DNA of 64,000 nt from a bacterium. GTDB taxonomy: Bacteria > SAR324 > NAC60-12. Where the stretch lies: assembly GCA_965209155.1 (NCBI GenBank), contig OZ242383.1, forward strand, positions 96,001 to 160,000, in the 5' to 3' direction. Below are positions 7,960 to 64,000 of the stretch, piece after piece. How positions within the stretch are numbered: position 1 is the stretch's first letter; each line of letters begins with the position of its first letter. The translations under genes and the position numbers were made by a program. Under the pieces are notes generated by a model that made no database searches, was not told the DNA's origin, and was given only the letters and a program-made list of their open reading frames with translations.

Positions 7960-8520
7960 AGTCATCACCACCGGCAGAGCCGGTGGCTTGAAGAGGCCCC
8001 CAGTATGGGGGCAAAACGTGTTCGTCATCGTAAGACGTGCTCGTGCTCGTGAACGAAAAAGGCTGCCATGTTAAATCATGAAAAACTCGATGTATACCAA
8101 TGTTCCATCGAATTTTTAGCGTTATCTGTCCAAGTCATCGAAACATTGCCAAAAGGATACTCAGCCTTAGTTGACCAACTGAAAAGGACCTCATGGTCGA
8201 TTCCTCTCATATCGCAGAAGGCTGTGGAAAAAATTCCCTTCCTGACAAGCAACGATTCTATGCGTTTGCCCGAGGTTCCGCAATGGAATGCGCTGCTATT
8301 CTCGATGTTTTAAACGTGTTGAAGATCATCCAGCCTCCTTTATTTGACGAAGGGAAACAGTTACTTCATCGCATTGTTTCTATGTTAACCAAAATGTGCC
8401 ATCGAATTCACTGACCGTTCACGAGCACGAGCACGGCTAACGGACACGGATACGTTTCTCATGTCTGACCGGCAAAGCCTATTAGGTTCGCACCAGCAGA
8501 GCTGGTGGTTTAATGAGATT
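7960..8520 (+). mobile_element. IVP-carrying IS200/IS605-like non-autonomous element, copy 1 (four-helix-bundle gene frameshifted by a 1-bp deletion near 8208)
   Basis: 561 bp, near-identical to the 562-bp intact copies; ORF split into 8068-8313 and 8193-8414. Confidence 0.9.
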
Positions 8521-9950: not shown

Positions 9951-10365
9951 AGTCATCACCACCGGCAGAGCCGGTGGCTTGAAGAGGCCCCCAGTATGAG
10001 GGCAAAACGTGTTCGTCATCGTATGACGTGCTCGTGCTCGTGAACGAAAAAGGCTGCCATGTTAGATCATGAAAAACTCGATGTATACCCATGTTCCATC
10101 GAATTTTTGCGTTACCTGTCCAAGTCATCGAAACATTGCCAAAAGGATACTCAGCCTTAGTTGACCAACTGAAAAGGGCCTCATGGTCGATTATTTGACG
10201 AAGGGAAACAGTTACTTCATCGCATTGTTTCTATGTTAACCAAAATGTGCCGTCGAATTCACTGACCGTTCACGAGCACGGCTCACGGACACGGATACGT
10301 TACTCATGTCTGACCGGCAAAGCCTATTAGGTTCGCACCAGCAGAGCTGGTGGTTTAATGAGATT
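9951..10365 (+). mobile_element. IVP element copy 2, 140-bp internal deletion
   Basis: Both ends intact; junction TGGTCGATT|ATTTGACG. Confidence 0.9.
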
Positions 10366-13710: not shown

Positions 13711-14699
13711 TTTTTTGATCAACGTCATCTCGTAACTCACTTTATAAATCGATTCTGCCAATTCAAGAGCTTGAAGTATTCTGAGATTCTACTGACAAGA
13801 CCGGATCTACGGGGGCTCGATGAATTGCATTGGATCATTTATGCGTTGGGATGCGGCCATCTTCAAAGTCAATGAAATAGTCCTTTTTCACCTGACAAGA
13901 ACTATTGCTTCATGCTAAAGAATCGCTCTCTGTCGATTCTACGGATTCGGGATGCCCTGTTCAGTTCAGCTGAGGCTGTTGAGAGAAAGTCATCACCACC
14001 GGCAGAACCGGTGGCTTGAAGAGGCCCCCAGGATGAGGGCAAAACGTGTTCGTCATCGTAAGACGTGCTCGTGCTCGTGAACGAAAAAGACTGCCATGTT
14101 AGATCATGAAAAACTCGATGTATACCAATGTTCCATCGAATTTTTAGCGTTACCTGTCCAAGTCGTCGAAACATTGCCAAAAGGATACTCAGCCTTAGTT
14201 GACCAACAGAAAAGGGCCTCATGGTCGATTATTTGACGAAGGGAAACAGTTACTTCATCGCATTGTTTCTATGTTAACCAAAATGTGCCGTCGAATTCAC
14301 TGACCGTTCACGAGCACGAGCACGGCTAACGGACACGGATACGTTTCTCATGTCTGACCGGCAAAGCCTATTAGGTTCGCACCAGCAGAGCTGGTGGTTT
14401 AATGAGATCAATCAGAGGAACTGAAACGTCAAATTCCTGCTTGAAGTTCCAAACATCCAAGCCTGACACGTTTTTGATAGACGTCCTCTCGTAACTCTCT
14501 TTAAAAAATCGATTCTGCCAATTCAAGAGCTTTAAGTATTCTGAGATTCTACTGACAAGACCGGATCTACGGGGGCTCGATGAATTGCATTGGATCATTT
14601 ATGCGTTGGGATGCGGCCATCTTCAAAGTCAATGAAATTATCCTTTTTCACCTGACAAGAACTATTGCTTCATGCTAAAAATCGCTCTCTGTGGATTCT
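13651..14699 (+). repeat. Direct duplication of about 290 bp (13651-13940 and 14410-14699) flanking IVP element copy 3
   Basis: Near-identical AATCAGAGGAACTGAAAC...GCTCTCTGT.GATTCT segments. Confidence 0.85.
13988..14409 (+). mobile_element. IVP element copy 3, same 140-bp deletion as copy 2
   Basis: 422 bp; identical deletion junction. Confidence 0.9.
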
Positions 14700-24535: not shown

Positions 24536-24641
24536 GGCTTACTTTCCGGCAGACGGTGCGAACATTGTTCAAACCGAAATGGTTCAGCATAGCAGAATTC
24601 TTAACATTTAACACCCGCGGCGGTGCGCCTCATGAAAACTT

Positions 24642-26780: not shown

Positions 26781-26790
26781 GGCTCTTTAT

Positions 26791-29394
26791 TCATACGGTT
26801 TGGTCGGATGCTAGCGGAGCGGGTGGAACGCGGCGTTTTTGTAACAATGCCAGCAAAGCGAGCAACAACAATGCCGGGATGAACATCAATTGCTTGGGCA
26901 GACGGTCGGAGAGCACCTCGACGTTTAAAATTTCCCAGTCGAAATCCAATCCCGCTCTCTGAGCAGCGCTGTCAAAAGCGACGAAGTCCAACAGCACCTT
27001 GTTGTCTTCCATGACAATTTCAAGACCGGCATCCATCAATCTCTCTGACCCGGGACCACTGGCGCCCAAGGGCAATTGAACGGTTTTTTTAACGAGTTTG
27101 CCATCGATGGTTTCTCCTTCCACGACCAAACGCAAGGTGCCATTTTCAGGGACTTGCCCGGCAATCGATTCGATTTGGGAAGCGGCGATGTTCTGGTATT
27201 TCGGAAAGGCCATGTCCCAGAAAAACCCGGGGCGGAAGAGAACGAAGGCAACCAGACACAAGGCGATCGACTCCCAAATCCTGTTTTTTACCAGCCAAAA
27301 TCCTTGCGTGGCCGCAGAAAAGGCCAACATGGCGACTACCGCGCCAAATATTACGGAAAGTAAAGCCCAGACGTTCACGATGTCGATCAGCAGCAACTGC
27401 GTGTTGAAGATAAACATGAAGGGAAGGATGGCAGTTCGGATATCATAGGTAAAACCCTGGATTCCGGTCCGGATGGGATTACTTCGCGCAATGGCGGCGG
27501 CGGCAAATGCCGCCAAACCCACGGGTGGCGTATCATCGGCGAGGATACCAAAATAAAAAACGAACAGGTGCACGGCAATCAAAGGAACAATCAAACCGCT
27601 TTCGGCTCCGAGCGTGACGATAACGGGAGCCATCAAGGTAGAGACAACGATATAATTGGCTGTGGTGGGCAGACCCATTCCCAGGATCAGGCTGATCAAG
27701 GCGGTAAAAATCAACATCAGCAAGACGTTGCCACCCGAGATGAATTCTACGAATTCGGTCATCACCAGACCAATCCCGGTCAACGTGACCGTTCCCACGA
27801 CAATCCCGGCCGTAGCGGTGGCCACTCCAATGCCGATCATGTTCCTGGAACCGGCCACCATCCCTGCCATCAATTCCCGGGCGCTGGCTTTGAATTCGGA
27901 AGCGAGATGGCCCCGTTTCTGAAAACAGGCTTTTAAAGGACGCTGGGTAACGACGATGAAAATCATGAACAACGCGGCCCAAAATGCTGCCAACCCGGGA
28001 GAAAATCGCTCCACTACCAAACACCAGACGAGCACCACGATAGGCAGCAAGAAATGCAAACCCGCTTTGATCGTCGGTCCGGTTTCCGGCAATTCGACCA
28101 CTTCCGAATCGGGAGCGTCCATCTGCAATTCCGGGAACCCGGTCCCATACCAGATCAACAAGACGTAAACCAGGAGAGTGAGGATGGAGACAATCGGGAA
28201 GGCGGCACTTCCGAAAAGGTCTTTCATCCAACCAATCCCGTAATAAACGATACCACTGAGAATGATCAATCCGAGGATGGTGCCGACAAAGGAGAGAAGG
28301 CTTTGCGCCAGCGTCGGTTTATGACGCCGGGGCAGTCCCTGCATATTGGCCTTACACGCTTCCAGGTGGACGATATAAACCAGGGCGATGTAGGAAATGA
28401 GCGCGGGTAAAATAGCATGGGTGATCACTTCGATGTAGGAGACGCCGACATACTCCACCATCAAGAAAGCGGCTGCCCCCATTATGGGAGGGGTCAATTG
28501 ACCGTTTGTAGACGCGGCTACTTCCACTGCGCCTGCTTTGTAATCGGGAAATCCCACGCGTTTCATCAAAGGAATCGTGAAAGTCCCGGTCGTCACCACG
28601 TTGGCAATCGAAGAACCGGAAACCAATCCACTCAATCCCGATGAAACGACGGCGGCTTTGGCAGGACCGCCACGATAATGTCCAAGGAGGGAAAACGCCA
28701 CTTTGATGAAGTAATTTCCCGCCCCCGCCTTGTCCAGTAAGGCGCCGAACAAAACAAAGAGAAAAACGAAGCTGGTGGAAACCCCCAAGGCCACACCGAA
28801 TACGCCTTCGGTCCCCAACCATTGATGGGACATGGTCTTGTTGAAACTGGCGCCCTTGTGAGCAATGACATCCGGCATATAAGGGCCAAAAAAGGTGTAA
28901 CAGAGAAAAACAAGAGCGACAACCATCAATGGCGGACCGAGCGCCCGCCGGGTGGCTTCCAGCAGCAAGACCATGCCCACTCCGGCAATCACGAGATCCA
29001 TCGTGATGGGAGCCCCCGAGCGATCCGAAAGCTGGGTATAGAATAAATAAATATATGCCGCGCAAAATGCCCCAACCAGCGCCATGACCCAATCATGGAG
29101 CGGGATGACGTTCCTGGCGGATTTTTTAAATGCAGGGAATGCCGTAAAGGTCAGAAAAATGGCAAAGGCGAGATGAATGGAACGGGCTTCCGTGTCGTTG
29201 AACACGCCTATTCGAAATATGAATGGCAAGGGAGATGCGTACCATAATTGAAACAAGGCCCAGACCAAGGGTACGAAAAACAATACTATTCCAGAAATAC
29301 CGGCAACGGATCGCGCACCGCTATCGGACTCCGCAACCATTGCCTGGAGTACTTGACGAGAAGCGCTCTCCCCATTTTTTGCATTTTCAGCCAT
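26791..29394 (-). CDS. TRAP transporter fused permease (4TM/12TM)
   Basis: GGPAKAAV, SGSSIANVVTTG, PPIMGAAAF, GMGLPTTANY, DDTPPV. Confidence 0.93.
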   Translation of the reverse strand: MAENAKNGESASRQVLQAMVAESDSGARSVAGISGIVLFFVPLVWALFQLWYASPLPFIFRIGVFNDTEARSIHLAFAIFLTFTAFPAFKKSARNVIPLHDWVMALVGAFCAAYIYLFYTQLSDRSGAPITMDLVIAGVGMVLLLEATRRALGPPLMVVALVFLCYTFFGPYMPDVIAHKGASFNKTMSHQWLGTEGVFGVALGVSTSFVFLFVLFGALLDKAGAGNYFIKVAFSLLGHYRGGPAKAAVVSSGLSGLVSGSSIANVVTTGTFTIPLMKRVGFPDYKAGAVEVAASTNGQLTPPIMGAAAFLMVEYVGVSYIEVITHAILPALISYIALVYIVHLEACKANMQGLPRRHKPTLAQSLLSFVGTILGLIILSGIVYYGIGWMKDLFGSAAFPIVSILTLLVYVLLIWYGTGFPELQMDAPDSEVVELPETGPTIKAGLHFLLPIVVLVWCLVVERFSPGLAAFWAALFMIFIVVTQRPLKACFQKRGHLASEFKASARELMAGMVAGSRNMIGIGVATATAGIVVGTVTLTGIGLVMTEFVEFISGGNVLLMLIFTALISLILGMGLPTTANYIVVSTLMAPVIVTLGAESGLIVPLIAVHLFVFYFGILADDTPPVGLAAFAAAAIARSNPIRTGIQGFTYDIRTAILPFMFIFNTQLLLIDIVNVWALLSVIFGAVVAMLAFSAATQGFWLVKNRIWESIALCLVAFVLFRPGFFWDMAFPKYQNIAASQIESIAGQVPENGTLRLVVEGETIDGKLVKKTVQLPLGASGPGSERLMDAGLEIVMEDNKVLLDFVAFDSAAQRAGLDFDWEILNVEVLSDRLPKQLMFIPALLLLALLALLQKRRVPPAPLASDQTV

Positions 29395-35837: not shown

Positions 35838-36214
35838 AATCTCATTAAACCACCAGCTCTGCTGGTGCGAACCTAATAGGCTTTGCCGGTCAGACATGAG
35901 AAAGGTATCCGTGTCCGTTAGCCGTGCTCGTGCTCGTGAACGGTCAGTGAATTCGACGGCACATTTTGGTTAACATTGAAACAATGCGATGAAGTAACTG
36001 TTTCCCTTCGTCAAATAAAGGAGGATGGATGATCTTCAACACGTTTAAAACATCGAGAATAGCAGCGCATTCCATAAAAATTCGATGGAAGATTGGTATA
36101 CATCGAGTTTTTCATGATCTAACATGGCAGCCTTTTTCGTTCACGAGCACGAGCACGTTTTGCCCTCATACTGGGGGCCTCTTCAAGCCACCGGCTCTTC
36201 CGGTGGTGATGACT
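35838..36214 (-). mobile_element. IVP element copy 4, different deletions (166 bp and 19 bp)
   Basis: 377 bp, both ends intact, preceded by TAATT. Confidence 0.9.
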
Positions 36215-41884: not shown

Positions 41885-42446
41885 AATTATCACCACCGGC
41901 AGAGCCGGTGGCTTGAAGAGGCCCCCAGTATGAGGGCAAAACGTGTTCGTCATCGTAAGACGTGCTCGTGCTCGTGAACGAAAAAGGCTGCCATGTTAGA
42001 TCATGAAAAACTCGATGTATACCAATGTTCCATCGAATTTTTAGCGTTATCTGTCCAAGTCATCGAAACATTGCCAAAAGGATACTCAGCCTTAGTTGAC
42101 CAACTGAAAAGGGCCTCATGGTCGATTCCTCTCAATATCGCAGAAGGCTGTGGAAAAAATTCCTTTGCTGACAAGCAACGATTCTATGCATTTGCCCGAG
42201 GTTCCGCAATGGAATGCGCTGCTATTCTCGATGTTTTAAACGTGTTGAAGATCATCCAGCCTCCTTTATTTGACGAAGGGAAACAGTTACTTCATCGCAT
42301 TGTTTCTATGTTAACCAAAATGTGCCGTCGAATTCACTGACCGTTCACGAGCACGAGCACGGCTCACGGACACGGATACGTTTCTCATGTCTGACCGGCA
42401 AAGCCTATTAGGTTCGCACCAGCAGAGCTGGTGGTTTAATGAGATT
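41885..42446 (+). mobile_element. IVP element copy 5 (full length)
   Basis: 562 bp; terminal AGTC changed to AATT. Confidence 0.9.
41993..42340 (+). CDS. Four helix bundle protein (23S rRNA-IVP / TIGR02436-like)
   Basis: EKLDVYQ, DQLKRAS.SIPLNIAEG, ARGSAMEC. Confidence 0.9.
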   Translation: MLDHEKLDVYQCSIEFLALSVQVIETLPKGYSALVDQLKRASWSIPLNIAEGCGKNSFADKQRFYAFARGSAMECAAILDVLNVLKIIQPPLFDEGKQLLHRIVSMLTKMCRRIH

Positions 42447-46750: not shown

Positions 46751-47312
46751 AGTCATCACCACCGGCAGAGCCGGTGGCTTGAAGAGGCCCCCAGGATGAG
46801 GGCAAAACGTGTTCGTCATCGTAAGACGTGCTCGTGCTCGTGAACGAAAAAGGCTGCCATGTTAGATCATGAAAAACTCGATGTATACCAATGTTCCATC
46901 GAATTTTTAGCGTTATCTGTCCAAGTCATCGAAACATTGCCAAAAGGATACTCAGCCTTAGTTGACCAACAGAAAAGGGCCTCATGGTCGATTCCTCTCA
47001 ATATCGCAGAAGGCTGTGGAAAAAATTCCTTTGCTGACAAGCAACGATTCTATGCATTTGCCCGAGGTTCCGCAATGGAATGCGCTGCTATTCTCGATGT
47101 TTTAAACGTGTTGAAGATCATCCAGCCTCCTTTATTTGACGAAGGGAAACAGTTACTTCATCGCATTGTTTCTATGTTAACCAAAATGTGCCGTCGAATT
47201 CACTGACCGTTCACGAGCACGAGCACGGCTCACGGACACGGATACGTTTCTCATGTCTGACCGGCAAAGCCTATTAGGTTCGCACCAGCAGAGCTGGTGG
47301 TTTAATGAGATT
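46751..47312 (+). mobile_element. IVP element copy 6 (first of a tandem pair)
   Basis: 562 bp. Confidence 0.92.
46859..47206 (+). CDS. Four helix bundle protein
   Basis: As 41993; L38Q. Confidence 0.88.
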   Translation: MLDHEKLDVYQCSIEFLALSVQVIETLPKGYSALVDQQKRASWSIPLNIAEGCGKNSFADKQRFYAFARGSAMECAAILDVLNVLKIIQPPLFDEGKQLLHRIVSMLTKMCRRIH

Positions 47313-47874
47313 AGTCATCACCACCGGCAGAGCCGGTGGCTTGAAGAGGCCCCCAGTATGAGGGCAAAACGTGTTCGTCATCGTATGACGTGCTCGTGCT
47401 CGTGAACGAAAAAAGCTGCCATGTTAGATCATGAAAAACTCGATGTATACCAATGTTCCATCGAATTTTTAGCGTTATCTGTCCAAGTCATCGAAACATT
47501 GCCAAAAGGATACTCAGCCTTAGTTGACCAACTGAAAAGGGCCTCATGGTCGATTCCTCTCAATATCGCAGAAGGCTGTGGAAAAAATTCCTTTCCTGAC
47601 AAGCAACGATTCTATGCATTTGCCCGAGGTTCCGCAATGGAATGCGCTGCTATTCTCGATGTTTTAAACGTGTTGAAGATCATCCAGCCTCCTTTATTTG
47701 ACGAAGGGAAACAGTTACTTCATCGCATTGTTTCTATGTTAACCAAAATGTGCCGTCGAATTCACTGACCGTTCACGAGCACGAGCACGGCTCACGGACA
47801 CGGATACCTTTCTCATGTCTGACCGGCAAAGCCTATTAGGTTCGCACCAGCAGAGCTGGTGGTTTAATGAGATT
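47313..47874 (+). mobile_element. IVP element copy 7 (abuts copy 6 with no spacer)
   Basis: 562 bp; junction GAGATT|AGTCAT. Confidence 0.92.
47421..47768 (+). CDS. Four helix bundle protein
   Basis: As 41993. Confidence 0.88.
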   Translation: MLDHEKLDVYQCSIEFLALSVQVIETLPKGYSALVDQLKRASWSIPLNIAEGCGKNSFPDKQRFYAFARGSAMECAAILDVLNVLKIIQPPLFDEGKQLLHRIVSMLTKMCRRIH

Positions 47875-50801: not shown

Positions 50802-52046
50802 TTGGCCAGTCCTGAAAAAAAATCACTTTTTACAAGTTCGGAAAAAAAGGGCATCTATAGCCTGAGTTGCATCTTATTTTTCAGGATGTTTGGGCTTTTT
50901 TTAGTGATTCCCGTCTTCAGCCTGCTGGCCTTGGACTTGAAAGGCGCCACTCCATTACTGATTGGAGTGGCACTGGGGGCTTATGCGCTGACGCAGGCTT
51001 TTTTACAGATTCCCTTCGGTATCTGGAGTGATCGAATAGGCAGGAAACCCGTAATTGCCTTGGGGCTCGGATTATTTATTCTGGGAAGCGCCATGGGCGT
51101 GGTGGTCGAAGACATCTATTGGATGATAGTCGCGCGATTGCTCCAGGGGGCCGGGGCAATCAGCAGCACCATGTTCGCCCTGATCGCCGATTTGACGCGT
51201 CCGGAAGTCCGCGCGCGAGCCAATGCGGGGTTAGGCGCAAGCGTGGGTCTGGCTTTTGGCGTTGCATTTTTAGTCGCCCCTGTTTTGGGAGGATGGATGG
51301 GATTGACCGGCATTTTTACACTGATCACCGTGATGGCTCTCACCAGCCTGGTCATTTTAGTCTGTTGGGTGCCCCAACCTCAGCAAAAAGTCGTCGTTTC
51401 GGAATCGATGTGGTCCAGGATCAAAACAGTGTTAGGGATGCCCGTGCTTTTGAAGATCGATTTCGGCGCTTTCATCACCACCGTGGGATTGTCTTCCATT
51501 TTCTTTATCACCCCGTTGGTTTTATACGAACATGGTTTTGCAAAAACGGATCTGTGGAAAGTTTATCTTCCCATGCTGCTGCTTGGAGGCATAGCCATGT
51601 TCACCTCGACGATTTACGCGGAAACGCGAAATCGTTATCGAGCCGTGATGATGGCAGGCGCTGGATTGCTGTTGATTTCATTTTTACTGTTTTGGGCAGG
51701 AAAAGAATGGAATGCCGTGCCGCTTTACCTGGCAGCCTTGTTTTCATTTTTCATGGGATTCAATGTGTTTGAGCCAATCTTTCCGAGCTTATTGACTCGT
51801 ATGACGACTCCCCAAACCAAAGGAACCGCCAGTGGCATTTACAGTTTTTCCCATTTTATGGGCAATTTTGCAGGAGCCGTTTTAGCAGGATTGTGGTACC
51901 GTGAGCACCATTCCTGGCTTTTTTTATTACTGGTGAGCATGGTCGCTTTATTTTTTTATTTCCTTCTGAATTTTCCCAATCCGGAGAAACGGGAAACTTT
52001 TTTGAAATCCGCAGAGCAAAAAGTTGCTGCTTCCAATTGCAGGTGA
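50802..52046 (+). CDS. MFS transporter (YajR-like)
   Basis: RMFGLF, SDRIGRKPVI, ARLLQGAGAI. Confidence 0.88.
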   Translation: MASPEKKSLFTSSEKKGIYSLSCILFFRMFGLFLVIPVFSLLALDLKGATPLLIGVALGAYALTQAFLQIPFGIWSDRIGRKPVIALGLGLFILGSAMGVVVEDIYWMIVARLLQGAGAISSTMFALIADLTRPEVRARANAGLGASVGLAFGVAFLVAPVLGGWMGLTGIFTLITVMALTSLVILVCWVPQPQQKVVVSESMWSRIKTVLGMPVLLKIDFGAFITTVGLSSIFFITPLVLYEHGFAKTDLWKVYLPMLLLGGIAMFTSTIYAETRNRYRAVMMAGAGLLLISFLLFWAGKEWNAVPLYLAALFSFFMGFNVFEPIFPSLLTRMTTPQTKGTASGIYSFSHFMGNFAGAVLAGLWYREHHSWLFLLLVSMVALFFYFLLNFPNPEKRETFLKSAEQKVAASNCR

Positions 52047-52262
52047 TTTTTCCAAAAACCATAATGGAATCTACATATCTTAGAGAAACCTTGTCATTTC
52101 TGCGAAAGCAGGAATCCTGAAGCATGCAGCCAGCCAGAAATCCGGATCCCCGCTCCCTGTTCCCTGCTTTCGCAGGGACAAGTTTAGCGGGAACAAGCTT
52201 CGCGCGGATGGCATAGACAACAGGATACTCCTATTACGTGAACCAGGAGTTGAAATTTAATT

Positions 52263-52824
52263 AATCTCATTAAACCACCAGCTCTGCTGGTGCGAACCTA
52301 ATAGGCTTTGCCGGTCAGACATGAGAAACGTATCCGTGTCCGTTAGCCGTGCTCGTGCTCGTGAACGGTCAGTGAATTCGACGGCACATTTTGGTTAACA
52401 TAGAAACAATGCGATGAAGTAACTGTTTCCCTTCGTCAAATAAAGGAGGCTGGATGATCTTCAACACGTTTAAAACATCGAGAATAGCAACGCATTCCAT
52501 TGCGGAACCTCGGGCCAATGCATAGAATCGTTGCTTGTCAGGAAAGGAATTTTGTCCACAGCCTTCTGCGATATTGAGAGGAATCGACCATGAGGCCCTT
52601 TTCAGTTGGTCAACTAAGGCTGAGTATTCTTTTGGCAATGTTTCGATGACTTGGACAGGTAACGCTAAAAATTCGATGGAACATTGGTATACATCGAGTT
52701 TTTCATGATCTAACATGGCAGCCTTTTTCGTTCACGAGCACGAGCACGTCTTACGATGACGAACACGTTTTGCCCCCATCCTGGGGGCCTCTTCAAGCCA
52801 CCGGCTCTGCCGGTGGTGATGACT
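52263..52824 (-). mobile_element. IVP element copy 8
   Basis: 562 bp after TAATT. Confidence 0.92.
52369..52716 (-). CDS. Four helix bundle protein
   Basis: As 41993 with several substitutions. Confidence 0.85.
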   Translation of the reverse strand: MLDHEKLDVYQCSIEFLALPVQVIETLPKEYSALVDQLKRASWSIPLNIAEGCGQNSFPDKQRFYALARGSAMECVAILDVLNVLKIIQPPLFDEGKQLLHRIVSMLTKMCRRIH

Positions 52825-53020
52825 TATAAAATCAATAATTTTGATTATGATGTGTCATGCTGGTCCCGGATCAAGCCGGGATGATCCGGCATCCAAAATA
52901 TCGCCCGTTTCCCCTGGATCCTGGTCAAGCCAGGAATGACACGTTTTTCAACCCCTGATTCCCATTCCTATTATTGAAGATTTAACTCGAACTCAGGTTA
53001 AATACCAAAAGAGGTTTACT

Positions 53021-53821
53021 TCAGTGAGTATTTTGTTTCCCATATGAATACTCCATCCTGCCACCGGTTATGGGAAAGGTTTCACTGTTGATAAAGCCGG
53101 CTTGATTCGAACACAAAAAAGTGACCAAGGCCGAAACGTCACCGGCATTCCCCAATCTTCGTAATGGTACCTGTTTCGCATAATCGGCCAGCTCATCTTC
53201 ACTGGAACTGTCAGCCAGTGTTTCAGTTTTTATAAATCCAGGCGCAATTGCATTAACAGTTATTCCAAAAGGGCCCAGCTCTTTTGCAGCCGACTTAGTC
53301 AAACCAATCAAACCTGCTTTCGCAGCCGCATAATGTGAGGCTCCCAAGCCAGAACCAACAAAACCATGAATGGACGAAGTGTTGATGATTCTTCCCCATT
53401 TGTTCTTGATCATGTGACGCGCAACAAACTTTGTACAAATGAAGGAACCCGTTAATGCAACGGACAACATTTCATTCCAGTCTTCCAGGTTCAAACAATC
53501 AATCTTGAATTGAGGTCCAACATATTGAGATCCCGTTAAACTCGCGTTGTTGATAAAAATGTCAATTCTTTCCCGTTCTGCCACAATTTTTTCAACCATT
53601 TGATTCACTTCATTTTCGTTGGTCACGTCCAACTTCTCAGAAAAAGCCAGCCATCCTTTATCGTTGATTTGGTTTACCGCTTGTTTCAACGGTTCTGTAA
53701 TCTCCTTATCGGTCAAGTAAACGACAGCGCCTTCGCCCGCTAATGACAAAGCTTCTGCTTTTCCAATTCCGCGACTGGCTCCGGTTATCAAAGCGATTTT
53801 ATTTTTTAAACCAAGATCCAT
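53021..53821 (-). CDS. SDR oxidoreductase (FabG-like)
   Basis: TGASRGIG, NNA, YAAAK. Confidence 0.9.
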   Translation of the reverse strand: MDLGLKNKIALITGASRGIGKAEALSLAGEGAVVYLTDKEITEPLKQAVNQINDKGWLAFSEKLDVTNENEVNQMVEKIVAERERIDIFINNASLTGSQYVGPQFKIDCLNLEDWNEMLSVALTGSFICTKFVARHMIKNKWGRIINTSSIHGFVGSGLGASHYAAAKAGLIGLTKSAAKELGPFGITVNAIAPGFIKTETLADSSSEDELADYAKQVPLRRLGNAGDVSALVTFLCSNQAGFINSETFPITGGRMEYSYGKQNTH

Positions 53822-53828
53822 GAATCAT

Positions 53829-55208
53829 TCAGACGATTTTAATATTCTTCAGATCGATTAAACGGTCTTGCCTTGCCCTGAATTCGATGTTTTTGTTATA
53901 AACCCAAACATCTTTTGCATGATAAACAGGAATTCTTGATTGTATATTCAACAGGTTCTCTTGAATATTTTGATATGCGGAAAAGCGTTCCTTCTCATCA
54001 GTGATCCTTTTTACCTTGTCAATACTTTTGAATAAATTTTTATTAATAAGATTTTCTCGATTATCACTCAAAAAGTTGGATTTCAGGTTGTAGTCCGGAT
54101 CAAGGGTAATTTCGGACCAGCCATTGATAAACATGTCGTATTGCCCGTCACTCATGAGCGGCCATGCATCCTTCTCCGGATAGTCGAGAATATCAACGGA
54201 TATATTCAGCTTCGATAATGATTCCTTCAGGATCGTTGCGGTCTCCATGAGTTTGGGTACCGCCCCTCCAGGTAGAATCAAACTGCATTCAAAACCATTC
54301 TTATAAGCACTCAAATCCATCAGTTCTTTTGCTTTCCGTAAATTGAATTCAATACCGGGATTTTTTGTATTATACCCGAACACAGGCGGGGAGAGGACGG
54401 ATTTCGGGACCAAAGCATGCCCGAGAAATACGTCATTTATAATTTTCTCCCTGTCGATTGCAAGATTTATTGCTTTTCTGATGTTGTCGTCAAAATAGTT
54501 TTTCCGACAATTTATTGAAATAACAATGGTGTCCGGACCATTCATTTCTTCAAGGCGGAAGTCAGCGCGCAGAGTTTCAATGTATTCATGAGGGGGTTGA
54601 AAAATAAGATCGACTTTCCCTGATAAAAAACTTTCAAATCTTTGGTAAGGATCATTGCAACAGAGATAGTGGATGTGGGGAATGCAGGGCGTTCCGTCCC
54701 AATACTGATCATTTGAAATAAAATCCAAGTAATCCCCACTTTGATAGCCTGCAAATTTGTAAGGTCCCGTACCAATGGGTTCTTGATTTTCATTGACGGG
54801 AGTGAGCAAAGGCAAAATAGTAAGATTTGGAACCAGTGAGGCGTCGTATTGGCGCAATTTCAGCTGAATTTGGTTTGGGGTTATGACGTTAATGGTTTCA
54901 ATACTTTCGTATAAAAAATTCATTCTTGAACTTTTTAGTTTGTGAAAGGTGTATTCGACGGATTCGGCATCAAACGATTTTCCGTTATGAAATTCAATGT
55001 CTTTTTTTAGTTCAATTTCTAAAATAGCGTTACCTTTCCATTTCCAGCTTTTACACAACTGAGGTTTTATCACGCCGTTATAATCTCGCTTGAACAAACA
55101 ATCGTACAAATTGGAGCGCAATACAATATGCAAGGCGGTTTTGGTCGAGGAAATCGGATCCAAAGATCCCACATCCTCCCATGACAATTTCAATGATTCA
55201 TTTCTCAT
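53829..55208 (-). CDS. Family 5 (Opp/Dpp-like) solute-binding protein without signal peptide
   Basis: SLDP, FHNGKSFDAESV, PIGTGPYK, RKAINLAIDR. Confidence 0.85.
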   Translation of the reverse strand: MRNESLKLSWEDVGSLDPISSTKTALHIVLRSNLYDCLFKRDYNGVIKPQLCKSWKWKGNAILEIELKKDIEFHNGKSFDAESVEYTFHKLKSSRMNFLYESIETINVITPNQIQLKLRQYDASLVPNLTILPLLTPVNENQEPIGTGPYKFAGYQSGDYLDFISNDQYWDGTPCIPHIHYLCCNDPYQRFESFLSGKVDLIFQPPHEYIETLRADFRLEEMNGPDTIVISINCRKNYFDDNIRKAINLAIDREKIINDVFLGHALVPKSVLSPPVFGYNTKNPGIEFNLRKAKELMDLSAYKNGFECSLILPGGAVPKLMETATILKESLSKLNISVDILDYPEKDAWPLMSDGQYDMFINGWSEITLDPDYNLKSNFLSDNRENLINKNLFKSIDKVKRITDEKERFSAYQNIQENLLNIQSRIPVYHAKDVWVYNKNIEFRARQDRLIDLKNIKIV

Positions 55209-55270
55209 TTTATTATTTCCCGTAATTGTTAATCGTTCCTGTATTTAATATTTTTGCCGCATCGAGGTAG

Positions 55271-57010
55271 TTAACCGATTTTTAGATTCCGCCTCAGTTT
55301 ATCAGTCTCTTCTTGAAGCACTTTTAATTGATTCCCCCTTTTTTCAATGACGACCCCATATATTTTTCTGGCGGATCGTCTTGAAACGATTCCGTTCGCG
55401 ACATCATTGAAAACGGATTGCGTACTTCTTTCCAGAGGATTTCCGTATCCACCCCCACCCGGCAATTTGAGCGTAATAGTGGTGCCTGATTGAATTTCTA
55501 CGTCCTGCTTAGAGTTTCTGATCTTTTTTTTGTTTATCAGAAATTCACCTTTTTTGCCAGGACGCCCCCCTCTTAACCCTGCAGCAGCATACCTGGTTCT
55601 TTCGCACTTCGGACTGATGGAGTAAGGATATTTTGAATTTATTTCAAATTTTATAACTTGTCCCAAACCTCCACGATATTTTCCCGCACCACCCGAGTCA
55701 TTTATAAATTCTTTTTTTAAAAAGAAAAGAGGGGAGCGATCCTCCACAATTTCGACTGGAACGGATTGGGAACGTGCAGGAAATGCGGTGGTGGAGAGTC
55801 CGTCTTTATGGAATCGTGCGCCTGTTCCCCCGGTCCAAACCAAATGAAAATGAGAAGTGACACCGGGATCCGTAGCATAAGGTTGTATCGTCCAATCCGC
55901 GTCATAGCCTTCCGCGGTCACTTTTTCAGGGATGACATTCGCCAGGGCGCCAAATATCGTGCTTGGCAACAACTGTCCAATCGTATGTCGCGCAGCAACG
56001 GGTGCGGGGTGTACGGCATTGAGAATACAACCTTCGGGCGCAAATATTTTGAAGGGTCTGAAACTTCCTTCATTGTTGGGAAGATCAGGGGCAGTTAAGC
56101 ATTTCAGCGCAAAAATACTATAGGCATGGCTGTAATTGCTCACCACATTGATTCCGTAGAAACTTTGAGGTGAAGTTCCCGTATAGTCAACCAGAATTCC
56201 ATCCCTTTTCTTTACAGTAACTTTAACAACAATTTTTATCGGACTATCAAAACCGTCAGAAGTCAATTCATTGTAGTAAATTCCACTGGGCCAGGATTCT
56301 AAAGCGTTCCTGATTGAATTCTCAGAACGATTGATGATCTCATCCGAAATTTCGGAAAGGTCCTCCAGGGCAAATTCTTTCATGAATTTCAACAATTCAC
56401 GACCTCCGACTTCGTTTGCGGATACTTGCGCATTGAGATCCCCCAACATTTCGTCGTGGTTCCTCACATTACTTTTTATAATCGTAAAAACGTCTTCATT
56501 GGGTTTACCTGCATGAAAAAGTTTTAAAGGAGGCAACCACAAACCCTCTTCATAGACGTCTTTTGCTTCCGCAGACATCGGTCGCCCGCCAATATCCACG
56601 GAATGACAAGTATTTGCGAAAAAAGCGATCAATTGCTTTTTGTAAAAAACAGGGGTCACCATGGTGATATCGTTGAGATGTCCCGACGTTTTCCAAGGAT
56701 CGTTGGTTAAGAGAACGTCGCCATTTTCGAGATTGATTCCCGGGAATATCCTCAAGAATTCTTTCACGCAGTTGGCCGTTGAGTTTATATGTCCTGGAGT
56801 TCCCCTGATGGATTGAGCAAGCATTCTACCCTTTGCATCAAATATGGCTGCTGCAAGATCTTCGGCTTCGCTGACGACAGGGGTAAAGGAAGTTCGAACC
56901 AAGGTCGCTGCTTGTTGATTGACAACCGATATCAAGCGGTTCCAAACCACTTCAAGAAGAATTGGATCAATAGTCAGACTTTTTTTCCCCATTGACTGTT
57001 TATCGAACAT
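55271..57010 (-). CDS. Hydantoinase B / 5-oxoprolinase subunit B family
   Basis: NDPWKTSGHLND, HSVDIGG, DSGGAGKYRGG, PGGGGYG. Confidence 0.92.
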   Translation of the reverse strand: MFDKQSMGKKSLTIDPILLEVVWNRLISVVNQQAATLVRTSFTPVVSEAEDLAAAIFDAKGRMLAQSIRGTPGHINSTANCVKEFLRIFPGINLENGDVLLTNDPWKTSGHLNDITMVTPVFYKKQLIAFFANTCHSVDIGGRPMSAEAKDVYEEGLWLPPLKLFHAGKPNEDVFTIIKSNVRNHDEMLGDLNAQVSANEVGGRELLKFMKEFALEDLSEISDEIINRSENSIRNALESWPSGIYYNELTSDGFDSPIKIVVKVTVKKRDGILVDYTGTSPQSFYGINVVSNYSHAYSIFALKCLTAPDLPNNEGSFRPFKIFAPEGCILNAVHPAPVAARHTIGQLLPSTIFGALANVIPEKVTAEGYDADWTIQPYATDPGVTSHFHLVWTGGTGARFHKDGLSTTAFPARSQSVPVEIVEDRSPLFFLKKEFINDSGGAGKYRGGLGQVIKFEINSKYPYSISPKCERTRYAAAGLRGGRPGKKGEFLINKKKIRNSKQDVEIQSGTTITLKLPGGGGYGNPLERSTQSVFNDVANGIVSRRSARKIYGVVIEKRGNQLKVLQEETDKLRRNLKIG

Positions 57011-59102
57011 TGATACGTAAATTCAGTGATTCGTCCACTTCCAAGCTGGAGTGGGGGGCCATAATGGTCGTCGATTCGTTTTCCTCGATGATGGCAGGTC
57101 CTTTGATTTGATTTCCGACATCGAGTTGATAGCGATTGTAGACGGGGGTTTTGATGAATTTTTTGTATTCGTGAAAATAAGCGTTACGATATCCTTTGAG
57201 AGAAACATTTTGCTTCAACTTCGATCTACTTCTGTTGGCAGAAGCGATTTCCACGGTTGGAGTCCTGGAATAAGCAATGATTCTCCAATTTAAAACTTCA
57301 ATTTGCATATTGGAAGTCAACTTGGAATACTGTCTCAAGTATTCTTTTTTGAACAGTTCTTTGAATTTTTGATGGTTCTTTTGTTGAACCACGGCAATAG
57401 GAATGTTGACGCTTATTTCATGGGATTGTCCAATAAATCGCATATCGCAATTCAATTCGTATTCGATATTTGACTGATTTATCCCTGCTTCCAATAAAAT
57501 GATCCGTCCCTCTTGCTTCATCGTATTCAATATTGAATTTATTTTTTCCCATTTCAATTCATTCAAATTGATCCTGTAGGTGTGAACAAAGTCAAAACTC
57601 ATCGGTGTGCAAAGGAAACCAAACGCGGAAGTGACACCTGCAAAGGGTGGAATGACGACAGTGGAGATATTTAATAATTGAGCCAACTTATAAGAATGAA
57701 CGGGTCCTGCCCCTCCAAATGCGACCATGGCAAAATTACGAACGTCCTTTCCTCTTTCAGTGGTATGAATTTTAGCCGCGTTGGCCATATTCTCATTCAC
57801 AATTTGATGCACGCCCCATGCGGCATCGGTTAGACTGATTCTTAATTTTTTTGAAATATTCTCCAGAAGTGATTTTTTTGCCGCATTCAAATCGAGTTGC
57901 AGTTTTCCTCCAAGATAAAAATCCGGATTCAAATATCCCAAGATGAGATCTGCGTCGGTCACAGTGGGATCCTTTCCCCCATTGCCATAACAAACCGGAC
58001 CCGGGTCACTGCCAGCGCTTTCCGGTCCCACCTTTAACAGACCAAGTTCATTGATTCGAGCAATACTGCCACCGCCCGCACCGATCTCGATCATGTCCAC
58101 CGCCCGACCAGTTATCGGAATGCCACTTCCTTTTTTAAAACGGTACTCCCGGGCTGCCTCAAATACATTGGATGTCATAATCTGGCCGTTGTTTATTAAA
58201 CAAACCTTTGCCGTCGTGCCTCCCATATCAAAAGATAACGCATTTTTATTGAAGTTATTTTTAATGTAATACTTTGCCGCTAATGCACCAGACGCAGGGC
58301 CGGATTCCAGAATTTTAATCGGATATTTACATGCGAAATCGGGAGTACAGATACCGCCGTTCGAAAGCATCAGGTAAAATCGTCCATCGAAGTTTGATTG
58401 TTTCAACGTGTTTTCAAAACTTGTCAGATACTTCATGATGAGGGGTTGGACATAGGCATTCGCTACAGTGGTCGACATCCTTTCGAATTCTCTGATTTGA
58501 GGACTCACTCGACAGGAGAGGGAAACGTTCAGACCTGGAAGGATCCCTTTAATCCAAGATGCGATTGTTTCTTCATTGGTCGAATTGGCATAACTATGAA
58601 GGAGACAGATCGCAATCGAGTCAATCTCATTCTTTTTAATGAAATTAACTACTTTTCTCAGTTGTTTTTTAGCAGGTTTTATTAGAATGTGTCCATTGGA
58701 TAATACTCTTTCTTTGACTGGTATTCTCAATGACCGGGGTATTAAAGGAAGGGGTTTTTCAAGGTATAAATCATCCATGTCAAAACGCAGTTCTCTTGCT
58801 ATTTCCAGAATGTCCCTGAATCCCTCGGTTACGATCAATGCGGTTTTTGCTCCTTTTCGCTCGATGAGCGCGTTGCTGATCAAGGTCGTGCCATGGATTA
58901 TCTGGCGTAAATGTAAAAACTCATATCCAGCTTCACGTAAAATTTCATCTACCAGTTGAATAACGGCAATGGAGGGATCCTGATGAGTCGTTAACTTTTT
59001 ACCAACCCAGTATTTTCCGCATTCGTCATCAGTCAAGAAGACATCGGTAAATGTCCCTCCTATATCGACACCGAGCTTTAGTGATTTTTCAGTTTGCGTC
59101 AT
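57000..59102 (-). CDS. Hydantoinase A / 5-oxoprolinase subunit A family
   Basis: GVDIGGTFTD, HGTT, ESGPA, DMGGTT, GAGGGS, FGGAGP. Confidence 0.92.
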   Translation of the reverse strand: MTQTEKSLKLGVDIGGTFTDVFLTDDECGKYWVGKKLTTHQDPSIAVIQLVDEILREAGYEFLHLRQIIHGTTLISNALIERKGAKTALIVTEGFRDILEIARELRFDMDDLYLEKPLPLIPRSLRIPVKERVLSNGHILIKPAKKQLRKVVNFIKKNEIDSIAICLLHSYANSTNEETIASWIKGILPGLNVSLSCRVSPQIREFERMSTTVANAYVQPLIMKYLTSFENTLKQSNFDGRFYLMLSNGGICTPDFACKYPIKILESGPASGALAAKYYIKNNFNKNALSFDMGGTTAKVCLINNGQIMTSNVFEAAREYRFKKGSGIPITGRAVDMIEIGAGGGSIARINELGLLKVGPESAGSDPGPVCYGNGGKDPTVTDADLILGYLNPDFYLGGKLQLDLNAAKKSLLENISKKLRISLTDAAWGVHQIVNENMANAAKIHTTERGKDVRNFAMVAFGGAGPVHSYKLAQLLNISTVVIPPFAGVTSAFGFLCTPMSFDFVHTYRINLNELKWEKINSILNTMKQEGRIILLEAGINQSNIEYELNCDMRFIGQSHEISVNIPIAVVQQKNHQKFKELFKKEYLRQYSKLTSNMQIEVLNWRIIAYSRTPTVEIASANRSRSKLKQNVSLKGYRNAYFHEYKKFIKTPVYNRYQLDVGNQIKGPAIIEENESTTIMAPHSSLEVDESLNLRINVR

Positions 59103-59123
59103 GTTCCTGATCAGGTGGTAATT

Positions 59124-59282
59124 TTACTTTTCTGCAGGCGACTTGGAATGCTTTGCTTCCAGACCTCGAACTATCACGTACGCAATGAGCGTGAACACAA
59201 AGAACACCAGCAGCATCCACGCAATGCTTTGCAAGGTGCCGATGACGGTGCGGTACACCTCCAAAACCCGGTGTAAGGTTTC
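59124..59282 (-). pseudogene. C-terminal fragment of a membrane protein
   Basis: ETLHRVLEVYRTVIGTLQSIAWMLLVFFVFTLIAYVIVRGLEAKHSKSPAEK*, preceded by a stop, more GC-rich than its surroundings. Confidence 0.35.
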
Positions 59283-59600
59283 TCAGCTTCTAACATATGC
59301 TACACCATTCGGGGCGGAGTCGGTTGAGGGCTGGTTCAAGATAAAAACCGGGACGTATTGTCGCCAAATGTGTTATTCTTTGCGTGTAAAATGTATATCA
59401 TACCAACACTATCTGATCAAGGATCTACTGTCTGTTGTCAATATTTCCTCGTATACCAACCATGTCAAAAGTCCACTTTCTTGTAATTATGCGTAAAGGT
59501 TGGTTTGCTCTTCAAAGAGATAACCTGCCCTAAACCATCGGAATTTTTTTTGATTAACTATATTATTGCATTGGCCTGACGTACGCTTTAAAAAAAGCAA

Positions 59601-60485
59601 ATGCGTATTCTTCCAATGCGTGAGGAAGTGAGAGTGAAAGTGTGGACGACTACTTTGTATATTGCGGGAGGAATCGGCGGATTGATCCTCATTTTGTATC
59701 TTTTTCAGCGTCACCTCATTTATTTTCCGCGTGCATATGACTCCTCGTATGACTTGAAAAAATATGAAAATGTCGTTGAATTGGAGTACGAGACTGCAGA
59801 AGGACGTCAGGTTTCATTTTACATACCCCCCCGGCAAAAATCCAACTCACTCCCAGAGGAACTTTGGTTTGTCTTTGGAGGCAATGCCGCATTGGCTTTG
59901 GATTTTTATGATTTTGTATATCGTTATCCTAACCAAGCTGCCGGGATCTTGTTGATCGAATATCCCGGGTACGGCAAATGTGAGGGAAAAGCTTCACCTG
60001 CATCAATCCTGGCTTCGACTGAAGCCGCAATGGACCGTCTGGCGCAACATTTATCAGTTGAGCGTGGTCTCTTGAAGGAGAAACTGCATATTTTGGGACA
60101 TTCTCTGGGAAGTGGAGCAGGTTTGCAATTTGCGGTACGGCATCCTGCGCAAAAAATAATATTGATCTCCCCTTTCACCAGCCTGCAGGAAATGGCTTGT
60201 CGATCGGTTGGAAAACCCTTGTGCTATTTGCTTCGCCATCATTTCGACAATATGTCCCGTCTGTCGGAACTTGCGAAACGTGACCCCATGCCCCAAGTCC
60301 ATATCATTCACGGTACACGCGACCAGGTGATACCTGTTGCCATGGGACAATTACTGGCAAAAAATTTTTCTTCCATGGTAACTTACCTGGAAATTCCTCA
60401 TGCAGACCATAATTTTATCTTCTCACTGGCAGATGAAGAGATTTACCAGGCCATGAGCGGTTCTCAAACGCTTTCAGAGATGTAG
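59601..60485 (+). CDS. Alpha/beta hydrolase (ABHD13/YhcX-like) with N-terminal anchor
   Basis: LIYFP, FGGNA, EYPGYG, GHSLG nucleophile, HGTRD, ADHN. Confidence 0.88.
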   Translation: MRILPMREEVRVKVWTTTLYIAGGIGGLILILYLFQRHLIYFPRAYDSSYDLKKYENVVELEYETAEGRQVSFYIPPRQKSNSLPEELWFVFGGNAALALDFYDFVYRYPNQAAGILLIEYPGYGKCEGKASPASILASTEAAMDRLAQHLSVERGLLKEKLHILGHSLGSGAGLQFAVRHPAQKIILISPFTSLQEMACRSVGKPLCYLLRHHFDNMSRLSELAKRDPMPQVHIIHGTRDQVIPVAMGQLLAKNFSSMVTYLEIPHADHNFIFSLADEEIYQAMSGSQTLSEM

Positions 60486-60648
60486 GACGCATGAAAAAAA
60501 GGGAAAAAGTATTGATTTTTCAGAATGAATTATATTAAAACGTGTAAAAAACCCACTGAATCATTTCAGATTCTCATTCATTGAAAGTAAAATACTCTCA
60601 GTTATATGTGAATCAGGAGTTGAATTTTAATTTATAAAATCAATAATT

Positions 60649-61210
60649 AATCTCATTAAACCACCAGCTCTGCTGGTGCGAACCTAATAGGCTTTGCCGG
60701 TCAGACATGAGAAACGTAACCGTGTCCGTTAGCCGTGCTCGTGCTCGTGAACGGTCAGTGAATTCGACAGCACATTTTGGTTAACATAGAAACAATGCGA
60801 TGAGGTAATTGTTTCCCTTCGTCAAATAAAGGAGGCTGGATGATCTTCAACACGTTTAAAACATCGAGAATAGCAGCGCATTCCATTGCGGAACCTCGGG
60901 CAAATGCATAGAATCGTTGCTTGTCAGGAAAGGAATTTTTTCCACAGCCTTCTGCGATATTGAGAGGAATCGACCATGAGGCCCTTTTCAGTTGGTCAAC
61001 TAAGGCTGAGTATCCTTTTGGCAATGTTTCGATGACTTGGACAGATAACGCTAAAAATTCGATGGAACATTGGTATACATCGAGTTTTTCATGATCTAAC
61101 ATGGCAGCCTTTTTCGTTCACGAGCACGAGCACGTCTTACGATGACGAACACGTTTTGCCCTCATACTGGGGGCCTCTTCAAGCCACCGGCTCTGCCGGT
61201 GGTGATGACT
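60649..61210 (-). mobile_element. IVP element copy 9
   Basis: 562 bp after TAATT. Confidence 0.92.
60755..61102 (-). CDS. Four helix bundle protein
   Basis: As 41993. Confidence 0.85.
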   Translation of the reverse strand: MLDHEKLDVYQCSIEFLALSVQVIETLPKGYSALVDQLKRASWSIPLNIAEGCGKNSFPDKQRFYAFARGSAMECAAILDVLNVLKIIQPPLFDEGKQLPHRIVSMLTKMCCRIH

Positions 61211-61400
61211 TAATAATTCAGATGTGTCATGCTGGTCCCGGATCATCCTGGTCCCGGATCAAGTCCGGGATGATCCGGGATCCGGATGATCCGGCATCAA
61301 AAATGTCGCCCGTATCCCCCTGGATTCCTGGTCAGGCCAGGAATGACTCGTTTTTTAACTCCTGATTCACGCCAGTTTATACAATTTTGGAGCGTCCAGC

Positions 61401-63655: not shown

Positions 63656-64000
63656 AATCTCATTAAACCACCAGCTCTGCTGGTGCGAACCTAATAGGCT
63701 TTGCCGGTCAGACATGAGAAACGTATCCGTGTCCGTTAGCCGTGCTCGTGCTCGTGAACGGTCAGTGAATTCGACGGCACATTTTGGTTAACATAGAAAC
63801 AATGCGATGAAGTAACTGTTTTCCTTCGTCAAATAAAGAAGGCTGGATGATCTTCAACACGTTTAAAACATCGAGAATAGCAGCGCATTCCATTGCGGAA
63901 CCTCGGGCAAATGCATAGAATCGTTGCTTGTCAGGAAAGGAATTTTGTCCACAGCCTTCTGCGATATTGAGAGGAATCGACCATGAGGCCCTTTTCAGTT
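63656..64000 (-). mobile_element. IVP element copy 10 (truncated by the window edge)
   Basis: TAATT|AATCTC end plus the 3' part of the four-helix-bundle gene. Confidence 0.9.

Follow-up and report, generated by a model that had tools for sequence, protein, structure and literature searches.

A 562-nt repeat in a SAR324 genome as a probable non-autonomous IS200/IS605-type element with guide-directed insertion at TAAT(T)

The stretch of DNA analysed here (64,000 nt, in the following called the window) comprises bases 96001-160000 of the single 4,258,857-bp contig OZ242383.1 (assembly GCA_965209155.1) of a SAR324 bacterium of the lineage NAC60-12, the completeness of which is 93.6% as judged by marker genes. 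It harbors several copies of a 562-nt repeat that possesses no transposase gene and is present in about 95 copies in the genome. Two of them, copies 8 and 9, are located in the same family of miniature inverted-repeat transposable elements (MITEs) and are in the focus of this study. We assign the repeat to the IS200/IS605 elements, as a non-autonomous member of the kind called palindrome-associated transposable element (PATE) that inserts at TAAT(T) under the direction of a guide, and put the probability of this reading at roughly 85%. The copies were collected by a BLAST search of the genome with copy 8 as query, which yielded 128 segments and, from these, 98 left and 97 right ends; 85 full-length copies served for the counts of ends and divergence and 90 copies for the test of strand orientation.

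Each of the copies 8 and 9 starts with AATCTCA-TTAAA-CCACCAGCTCTGCTGGTG and finishes with TCAAG-CCACCGGCTCTGCCGGTGG-TGA-TGACT. The two ends (AATCTC... and ...GATGACT) are not inverted repeats of each other and there are no terminal inverted repeats, and both ends contain a subterminal imperfect palindrome on the same (top) strand with a strong fold as single-stranded DNA (ssDNA). As the first-pass annotation of this DNA had described, TTAAA and TCAAG directly precede the CCACC stems of the left and right palindrome, respectively, and differ from each other at two positions, in a fashion complementary to the two differences between TAATT and TGACT. TGACT constitutes the right end in 78 of the 85 full copies. 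The base behind it is T in 47 copies, C in 17, G in 13 and A in 8, and the right flanks are variable in general. The positions of all features are compiled in Table 1.

Copies 8 and 9 are exact insertions after the first and the second TAATT of their host MITE, respectively, and nothing was duplicated or lost. The segments of this MITE that flank the element have 151 and 187 BLAST matches in the genome, and 48 genomic matches (≤4 substitutions) to a 32-nt segment of it contain TAATT-TATAAAATCAA-TAATT with no interruption at the first TAATT; three of these 48 hold the element after the second TAATT. Since the empty site is present many times and is identical to the occupied one apart from the element, the insertions add and lose nothing. 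The first-pass annotation had already claimed insertion at two different TAATTs of one MITE family without gain or loss of a base, and coordinates, sequences and the 48 empty-site matches agree with it. It had also counted TAATT before eight of the ten left ends in the window, the exceptions being the tandem junction (TGACT) and a TGATT, and this count is correct. TAATTAATCTC occurs exactly 8 times in the window, against 1.05 times expected from 100 shuffles. The genome-wide tally of flanks, proposed beforehand as a check, reveals a clear enrichment as well: TAATT precedes 87 of the 98 left ends, compared to a background of 8.5e-4 per position (7207 occurrences on both strands of the 4,258,857 bp). 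The remaining left flanks are TGATT (three times), TGACT (twice, in direct tandems), AAATT (twice), TAATG, TCATT, GAATT and one alignment artefact. Positions -6 and -7 of the left flanks are also rich in A/T (79 and 72 of 98). As far as the flanks were inspected (those of all copies, and the wider context of copies 8 and 9), they consist of MITE or other DNA.

Table 1. Positions of the element copies, their parts and the host MITE sites within the window.
Feature	Position	Strand	Remarks
Target motif TAATT at the left junction of copy 8	52258..52262	+	core TAAT; final T either closes the target or opens the element
Copy 8, 562-nt non-autonomous IS200/IS605-type element (probable), register AATCTC...GATGACT	52263..52824	+	100% (query copy); followed by TATAAAATCAATAATT
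Left guide TAAA (putative), directly 5' of the left hairpin foot	52271..52274	+	5-nt TTAAA of the first-pass annotation: 52270-52274
Left subterminal hairpin CCACCAGC-TCT-GCTGGTG	52275..52292	+	ssDNA fold of 52253-52305: -8.7 kcal/mol, z -4.4
Inner inverted repeat next to the cargo gene, left arm, built of hexamer-phased CGTGCT/CGTGAA units	52326..52367	.	42 nt, 83% complementary to 52729-52770
Cargo open reading frame, 115 aa, four-helix-bundle / 23S rRNA intervening-sequence protein family	52369..52716	-	PF05635, TIGR02436
Right arm of the inner inverted repeat	52729..52770	.	42 nt, pairs with 52326-52367
Right guide CAAG (putative), directly 5' of the right hairpin foot	52794..52797	+	TCAAG of the first-pass annotation: 52793-52797
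Right subterminal hairpin CCACCGGC-TCT-GCCGGTGG	52798..52816	+	ssDNA fold of 52770-52830: -19.3 kcal/mol, z -6.6
Right cleavage motif TGACT (core TGAC)	52820..52824	+	3 nt past the hairpin foot
Second TAATT of the host MITE of copy 8, unoccupied	52836..52840	+	equivalent site taken by copy 9 in its own host
Left terminal inverted repeat, host MITE of copy 9	60608..60624	.	17 nt, 94% complementary to 61354-61370
First TAATT of the host MITE of copy 9, unoccupied	60628..60632	+	empty form of the site of copy 8; continues directly into TATAAAATCAA
Second TAATT, target of copy 9	60644..60648	+	
Copy 9	60649..61210	+	98.0% identity to copy 8
Right terminal inverted repeat, host MITE of copy 9	61354..61370	.	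17 nt
Further full copy	7961..8520	-	BLAST
Internally deleted copy	9952..10365	-	BLAST
Internally deleted copy, left flank TGATT	13989..14409	-	BLAST
Internally deleted copy	35838..36214	+	BLAST
Full copy, right end GATAATT not GATGACT; left flank also ends in GATAATT	41885..42446	-	followed by C
Direct tandem of two copies, junction GATGACT/AATCTC without spacer	46751..47874	-	BLAST and ends
Copy cut by the end of the window	63656..64000	+	BLAST

Barabas et al. reportedly found in 2008 that guide base 4 pairs with cleavage base 4. As described for IS608, the first guide base pairs with the second cleavage base and the second guide base with the first cleavage base, while position 3 of the cleavage site is an unpaired A that contacts the T at position 1 (PMC3201880, PMC5934647); for ISDra2, pairing of the third guide base with the +1 base after the cut is described (PMC5934647). 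If pairings of the IS608 type are applied to the element, they fit at all positions, that is TAAA with TAAT^T at the left and CAAG with TGAC^T at the right end. The same pairing was examined in relatives of the element from metagenomes, which were sought with an exact 23-nt pattern of left guide plus hairpin; more than 120 contigs matched and 80 were examined. TAAT is present at the expected upstream distance in 69 of the 80 relatives (TAATT in 59, TAATA in 10), TGAT in five and another sequence in five, and one contig is too short. TGAT(T), the commonest off-target left flank (3 of 98 ends here, 5 of 80 metagenome loci), keeps a G:T wobble with the guide. Right hairpins were found in 29 relatives, 24 of which are well formed, have enough tail and were therefore scored. 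The tetranucleotide predicted from the own guide of the locus is present 2-5 nt past the hairpin foot in 23 of them: CAAG occurs with TGAC (13 loci), CATA with TGAT (6 loci), AAAG with TTAC (2 loci), and CAAA with TGAT as well as GAAG with TCAC in one locus each. Compensatory changes are thereby found at both variable guide/cleavage pairs. Five of the six right-guide types fit strictly, and an equally good fit was obtained in 26 of 5000 permutations of the guides among the types. Among the unscored loci, L146 and L156 obey the pairing rule and have two stem mismatches each, and the hairpins of L108 and L162 are poor.

The genome itself holds ten full or nearly full IS200-type transposase genes that fall into three families (groups a, b and c), the ends of which, as we read them, follow the same pairing rule with two misfits. 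The guides and cleavage sites of group a are TAAA/TAAT at the left and, in copy a2, AAAC/TTAG at the right end. Group b exhibits AAAT with TTAA or TTGA at the left and AAAT/TTAA at the right end, one of its three left flanks being a misfit (TCAA), and group c AATT/TTTA and GATA/TCAT.

Cleavage base 3 and the base preceding the guide do not vary together: in the AAAG and GAAG families of the relatives, the latter is a C and the former is still A. This indicates that the guide comprises 4 nt and not 5 nt. The fifth base of the left flank varies (T or A) among families with the same left guide, and nearly all of them keep a T after the tetranucleotide of the right end. The variable fifth flank base and the constant T at the right end are both accounted for if the cut lies at TAAT^T and the T is part of the target, and this register is therefore probably to be preferred over a cut at TAATT^. 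The guide-target code of the IS608/ISDra2 type that the first-pass annotation had proposed is thus upheld by the pairing fit at both ends, by the three resident families and by the covariation in the relatives, but the 5-nt guides assumed there have to be shortened to 4 nt. Likewise, the cores TAAT and TGAC of the proposed cleavage motifs TAATT and TGACT stand, while the fifth base of the target TAATT more likely represents position +1 behind the cut.

The relatives also illustrate from which kind of element the repeat might have originated. In 14 of the 80, a TnpA-like open reading frame (ORF) starts approximately 50-160 nt inside the left end, and in six of these 14 the right end lies 562-568 nt downstream of the left guide, which is consistent with an insertion sequence of roughly 600 nt. 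The TnpA of one relative reaches 127.2 bits with PF01797 (Y1_Tnp). Other relatives are elements of about 300 nt without a gene between their ends and are thus PATEs in the strict sense; the element of the window, which contains the 115-aa PF05635 ORF, is not. Homology between the element and its relatives is limited to the first approximately 65 nt and the last approximately 55 nt. This suggests that the element is a non-autonomous derivative of an IS200 element, the interior of which was swapped for a passenger cassette. None of the 80 metagenome relatives possesses the four-helix-bundle gene.

The protein encoded by this passenger gene matches PF05635 ("23S rRNA-intervening sequence protein") with 85.2 bits (E 4.5e-24) and TIGR02436 ("four helix bundle protein") with 78.1 bits. 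We counted 92 unique non-synonymous and 27 unique synonymous changes of the ORF across the copies. The resulting ratio of 3.4 is approximately 0.95 of the neutral one (3.58 expected), so that no purifying selection was detected among the copies and the protein cannot be argued to be necessary for each of them. Homologues of the cargo were found at 57 loci from many phyla, and 21 of these loci were inspected. Inverted hexamer-phased arms flank the gene in nearly all of the 21 (including L025-L047), with hexamers that differ among the phyla. CCACC ends were found in only one of the 21, namely in L023, which is one of two loci from a congener; the other one, L024, is outside the 21. In a limited literature search, we found no description of this cargo family inside IS200 ends. 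The right hexamer arm has 42-nt matches away from the element at the genome positions 590850, 938764, 957114, 1041627, 1410706, 1416226 and 2164118, and four matches form a tandem array with a period of approximately 200 bp at 2753025-2753682.

In the mechanism that we propose, the outermost parts of the element, approximately 65 nt (left) and 55 nt (right) long, would derive from an IS200-type insertion sequence, and the four-helix-bundle gene together with its inverted hexamer arms would occupy the interior, where relatives have a tnpA gene of the Y1 (HUH) type. A TnpA supplied in trans would bind both top-strand hairpins in ssDNA. The 4-nt guide at the foot of each hairpin might then pair with the cleavage tetranucleotide (left end: TAAA/TAAT; right end: CAAG/TGAC), and the T after the tetranucleotide would face the third A of the guide at both ends. 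Finally, the top strand would leave as a circle and re-enter after a TAAT(T) chosen by the left guide, which would explain the lack of a target duplication. The chemistry and the single-stranded intermediate of this scheme, as well as the exact cut position and the identity of the transposase, are what we infer from comparing sequences. Directly visible in the sequences are the anatomy of the element, its target motif, the lack of a duplication, the match of guides to cleavage sites with its covariation in relatives, and the autonomous relatives sharing the left end.

The history of the element can be deduced to some extent from its copies. The 85 full copies form a star, with most of them 3-6 nt away from the consensus and a mean pairwise difference of 10.7 in 562 nt. 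No two copies are identical, and nearest neighbors differ by 1-14 nt. The star pattern without identical copies indicates what appears to be one single past burst that has now stopped. A congener genome contains four copies at approximately 85% identity with the same TAATT, TTAAA, TCAAG and TGACT. A bias towards the lagging-strand template has been reported for IS608 and ISDra2, and Ton-Hoang et al. are said to have tied the orientation of ISDra2 to this template in 2010. We analyzed the orientation of the copies with the origin of replication assumed at dnaA (1,795,114) and the terminus opposite of it. With this origin, the active strand of 66 of the 90 copies is on the lagging-strand template (p 1e-5), and of 52 of 73 if neighboring copies are collapsed. 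This result is suggestive only, since neither skew nor gene orientation gives an independent origin.

Several observations speak against guide-directed insertion by an IS200-type transposase and have to be weighed. The search pattern for the relatives fixed the left guide, and their covariation therefore concerns the right end only. One scored locus does not fit strictly (L149, TAAG with TGAC), the deviation being a T:G wobble, and the unscored L137, with a degenerate TnpA, combines CCAG with TGAC and thus has a mismatch at guide base 2. In the resident group a, copy a1 has the right end TTAA where its guide predicts TTAG. In three copies of the element itself, the right end is TAATT rather than TGACT and the right guide is unchanged, which is not predicted by the model. 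Furthermore, tblastn did not detect a transposase with matching hairpins in the assembly or the congener, but only the resident groups and a broken relic. Over their full length, the cognate TnpAs from the metagenomes are only 28-38% identical to those of the groups a, b and c; with fragments of the relic (1,156,289-1,156,605), the hairpin of which differs, the identity is 36-50%. A scan of the genome for the hairpin motif (≤3 substitutions) resulted in 15 matches outside the element, none of them a matching end. Concerning the strand bias, the cumulative GC skew gives no origin, which is thus assumed and not shown. The orientation of long ORFs gives none either, since co-orientation reached at most 52% for any candidate origin, and the three copies between 0.4 and 1.8 Mb are in the "wrong" orientation.

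The preference for TAATT might also be a property of the transposase protein or a plain preference for AT-rich DNA, and the complementarity of the guides a coincidence. The A/T-richness at positions -6 and -7 and the T that follows the right end in more than half of the full copies would be in line with this. However, we consider it very improbable given the compensatory changes in five strictly fitting guide types, the validity of the same rule for the ends of three unrelated resident IS200 families, and the fact that mutation of the guide retargets IS608 and ISGst2 (PMC5934647, PMC10055086). Minimum-free-energy folds of the ssDNA pair the flank with the guide (TTTAAT-ATTAAA at the left, TCA-TGA at the right), and two of these pairs are also part of the IS608 network, so that a plain antiparallel Watson-Crick mini-hairpin might take the place of a protein-held network of the IS608 type. 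This seems improbable to us, since such a mini-hairpin joins cleavage base 3 to the base preceding the guide, a third pair that is disrupted in the AAAG and GAAG families, and leaves the covarying fourth pair, C:G versus T:A, unexplained. Elements of the IS91 type also insert next to a tetranucleotide without duplication. Despite this likeness, movement by an IS91/Helitron rolling circle, by a homing nuclease or by the four-helix-bundle protein itself is hardly credible, as hairpins and guides are present at both ends, a Y1 TnpA is encoded by relatives that share the left end, and the cargo gene is free of detectable purifying selection among the copies and missing from all 80 relatives.

With guide-directed insertion by an IS200-type transposase as the preferred reading, the enzyme behind the burst would be either a cognate TnpA that the assembly no longer contains or a transposase of one of the three resident families. 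There is close to an even chance that a TnpA of the metagenome clade was present at the time of the burst and has since been lost or resides on an unassembled replicon. The star-shaped copies, of which none are identical, fit to such a past and stopped burst, the assembly is complete to 93.6%, and autonomous elements with an identical left end do exist in metagenomes. On the other hand, tblastn detected no relic of the cognate clade in the genome or the congener, and a single contig of 4.26 Mb looks like a whole chromosome. It is also well conceivable, if somewhat short of even odds, that a resident transposase of group a or group c recognizes the foreign hairpins and drove the burst. Group a shares with the element the left guide TAAA, the target and a similar stem foot (CC-N-CC/GGTGG) and even insertion sites: one of its copies occupies the MITE TAATT that is used by copy 8, and a second one lies at a flank sequence common to two copies of the element. 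Moreover, its two copies are 2.2% apart, which is close to what copies of the element differ by on average. Group c has the same hairpin apex (AGCTCTGCTG) and is currently active, since its five copies are 100% identical; in the metagenome locus L149, a PATE of the group c type abuts one of the element's type. In addition, the genome with three IS200 families has about 95 copies of the element, whereas the congener has four and no classical IS200 TnpA (its best match to PF01797 reaches 79.8 bits and has unrelated ends), although a comparison of two genomes is no test. The low identity of the resident TnpAs to those found with the same left end argues against cross-mobilization, and so does the lack of identical element copies in the presence of an active group c. 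The more specific scenario, in which a cassette resembling an intervening sequence (IVS) was captured between IS200 ends and amplified approximately 95-fold by a transposase only about 30-38% identical to the absent cognate, appears rather unlikely at present.

Some further observations concern transposases and hairpins elsewhere in the genome. The IS200 relic at 1156289-1156605 (minus strand) is frameshifted and truncated and has a left hairpin of its own (CCCCGCCC-TTT-GGGCGGGG); the stretch following this hairpin, AACTAAGGCTTTGCC, resembles AACCTAATAGGCTTTGCC of the element. One of the 15 hairpin matches outside the element, at 3,385,369, reads CCTCCAGCTCTGCTGGGG. Weak matches to Y1_Tnp (46-57 bits) were obtained for proteins of approximately 200-335 aa encoded at 2428344 and 3282658 in the genome and, in several copies, in the congener (L082-L088). 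These may be tyrosine transposases associated with repetitive extragenic palindromes or other ones not belonging to IS200.

The copies of the element are unevenly distributed, with few of them in 0.45-2.45 Mb and many in 0-0.35 and 2.5-4.26 Mb, and their orientation switches near 0.4 and 4.0 Mb. Four tandem pairs (12109-13239, 23647-24776, 26329-27338 and 3983357-3984480) have the same 6-nt spacer (GATGACT-TTAATT-AATCTC) and four different outer flanks. Three of their downstream members carry the uncommon variant 280C, and it may be that such a spacer-sharing pair transposes as a unit. The copies ending in GATAATT are located at 41885-42446 of the window and at 23647-24208 and 167219-167780 of the genome; this end requires two specific changes and is followed by C in each case. 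Apart from it, the three copies have no private change in common, so that it looks as if it arose repeatedly and was not inherited. The left flank is also GATAATT in two of them, and in the third one the left flank of its tandem unit ends in GATAATT (GGTGATAATT). By a strict count, the right end GATAATT occurs in two of seven copies with a GATAATT left flank and in one of 78 others (Fisher p 0.017). This might be due to a short-patch conversion of the right end by the left flank after an attempted excision of the top strand.

Public runs that hold positions 51300-53800 of the window are mostly labeled as sponge or marine metagenomes. The word depth of the element core is approximately 45-250 times that of the flanks in four public runs, a value that is summed over contigs and does not represent a copy number. 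Among the contigs of these four runs placed on 51300-53800, which break at repeats, none bridges the element. Contig joints that skip approximately 775-785 nt, with other letters in between, were set aside, as they concern the whole MITE region and are uninformative with regard to the boundaries of the element. A scan of 52150-52950 against Rfam (E up to 1) resulted in a sole match to the CPEB3 ribozyme, which we attribute to chance (15.9 bits, cut-off 35 bits).

If a non-cognate transposase was indeed the driver, the choice of the target would be fully portable DNA information, independent of the TnpA clade that carries out the chemistry, and IS200 ends would provide cassettes of the IVS type, which are otherwise unexplained, with an entry to new single-stranded sites that is programmed by sequence and free of duplication. 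The copies also represent a clean natural data set, with approximately 95 insertions at a single motif, occupied sites next to empty ones and relatives with co-changing right guides and cleavage sites. It could help to establish or verify how guides and sites pair at IS200-type ends (TAAT^T) and to annotate such ends automatically. The unusual passenger and the burst without a cognate transposase in the assembly are of interest for the question of how far Y1 transposases tolerate foreign hairpins. Guide-directed target choice, its reprogramming, the mobilization of gene-less PATEs in trans and the natural covariation of guides and motifs are already published (PMC5934647, PMC10055086). The present analysis adds that metagenomes contain autonomous elements with the same left end. 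Among the sequences searched, IS200-type ends around the four-helix-bundle cargo were encountered in this genus only.

Among known systems, IS608 of Helicobacter pylori shares with the element the subterminal hairpins on the top strand, the lack of terminal inverted repeats and of a target duplication, the insertion 3' of a fixed tetranucleotide that is retained at the left flank, and 4-nt guides that pair crosswise, with T as first and A as third cleavage base (TTAC and TCAA in IS608), as far as can be taken from the accounts of that system (PMC3201880, PMC5934647). It differs from the element in its target (TTAC instead of TAAT(T)) and in the distances between cleavage sites and hairpins, which are 19 and 10 nt in IS608 but approximately 9-12 nt at the left end of the element, with a 3-nt spacer at the right. 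Moreover, the element has neither tnpA nor tnpB, and the T after both of its cleavage sites is opposite the third guide base. ISDra2 of Deinococcus radiodurans has another target, TTGAT, and carries tnpA and tnpB. Like the element, it recognizes five bases, with the base after the cut pairing with the third guide base (PMC5934647). ISGst1-5 of Geobacillus stearothermophilus and their PATEs are similar in that one TnpA serves several families and gene-less PATEs in trans (PMC10055086). Their flanking and terminal motifs covary naturally with the DNA guides, and excision needs cognate pairs of guide and motif (PMC10055086, Meers et al. 2023). In contrast to the element, with its four-helix-bundle cassette and no cognate TnpA in the genome, they carry TnpB/IscB or nothing. 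Finally, the ORF-bearing IVS in the 23S rRNA of Coxiella burnetii (S23p) also has a PF05635 cargo in the loop of a long inverted repeat (PMC4990558), but the copies of the element reside in MITEs and intergenic DNA rather than in rRNA, and their cargo is wrapped in ends of the IS200 type.

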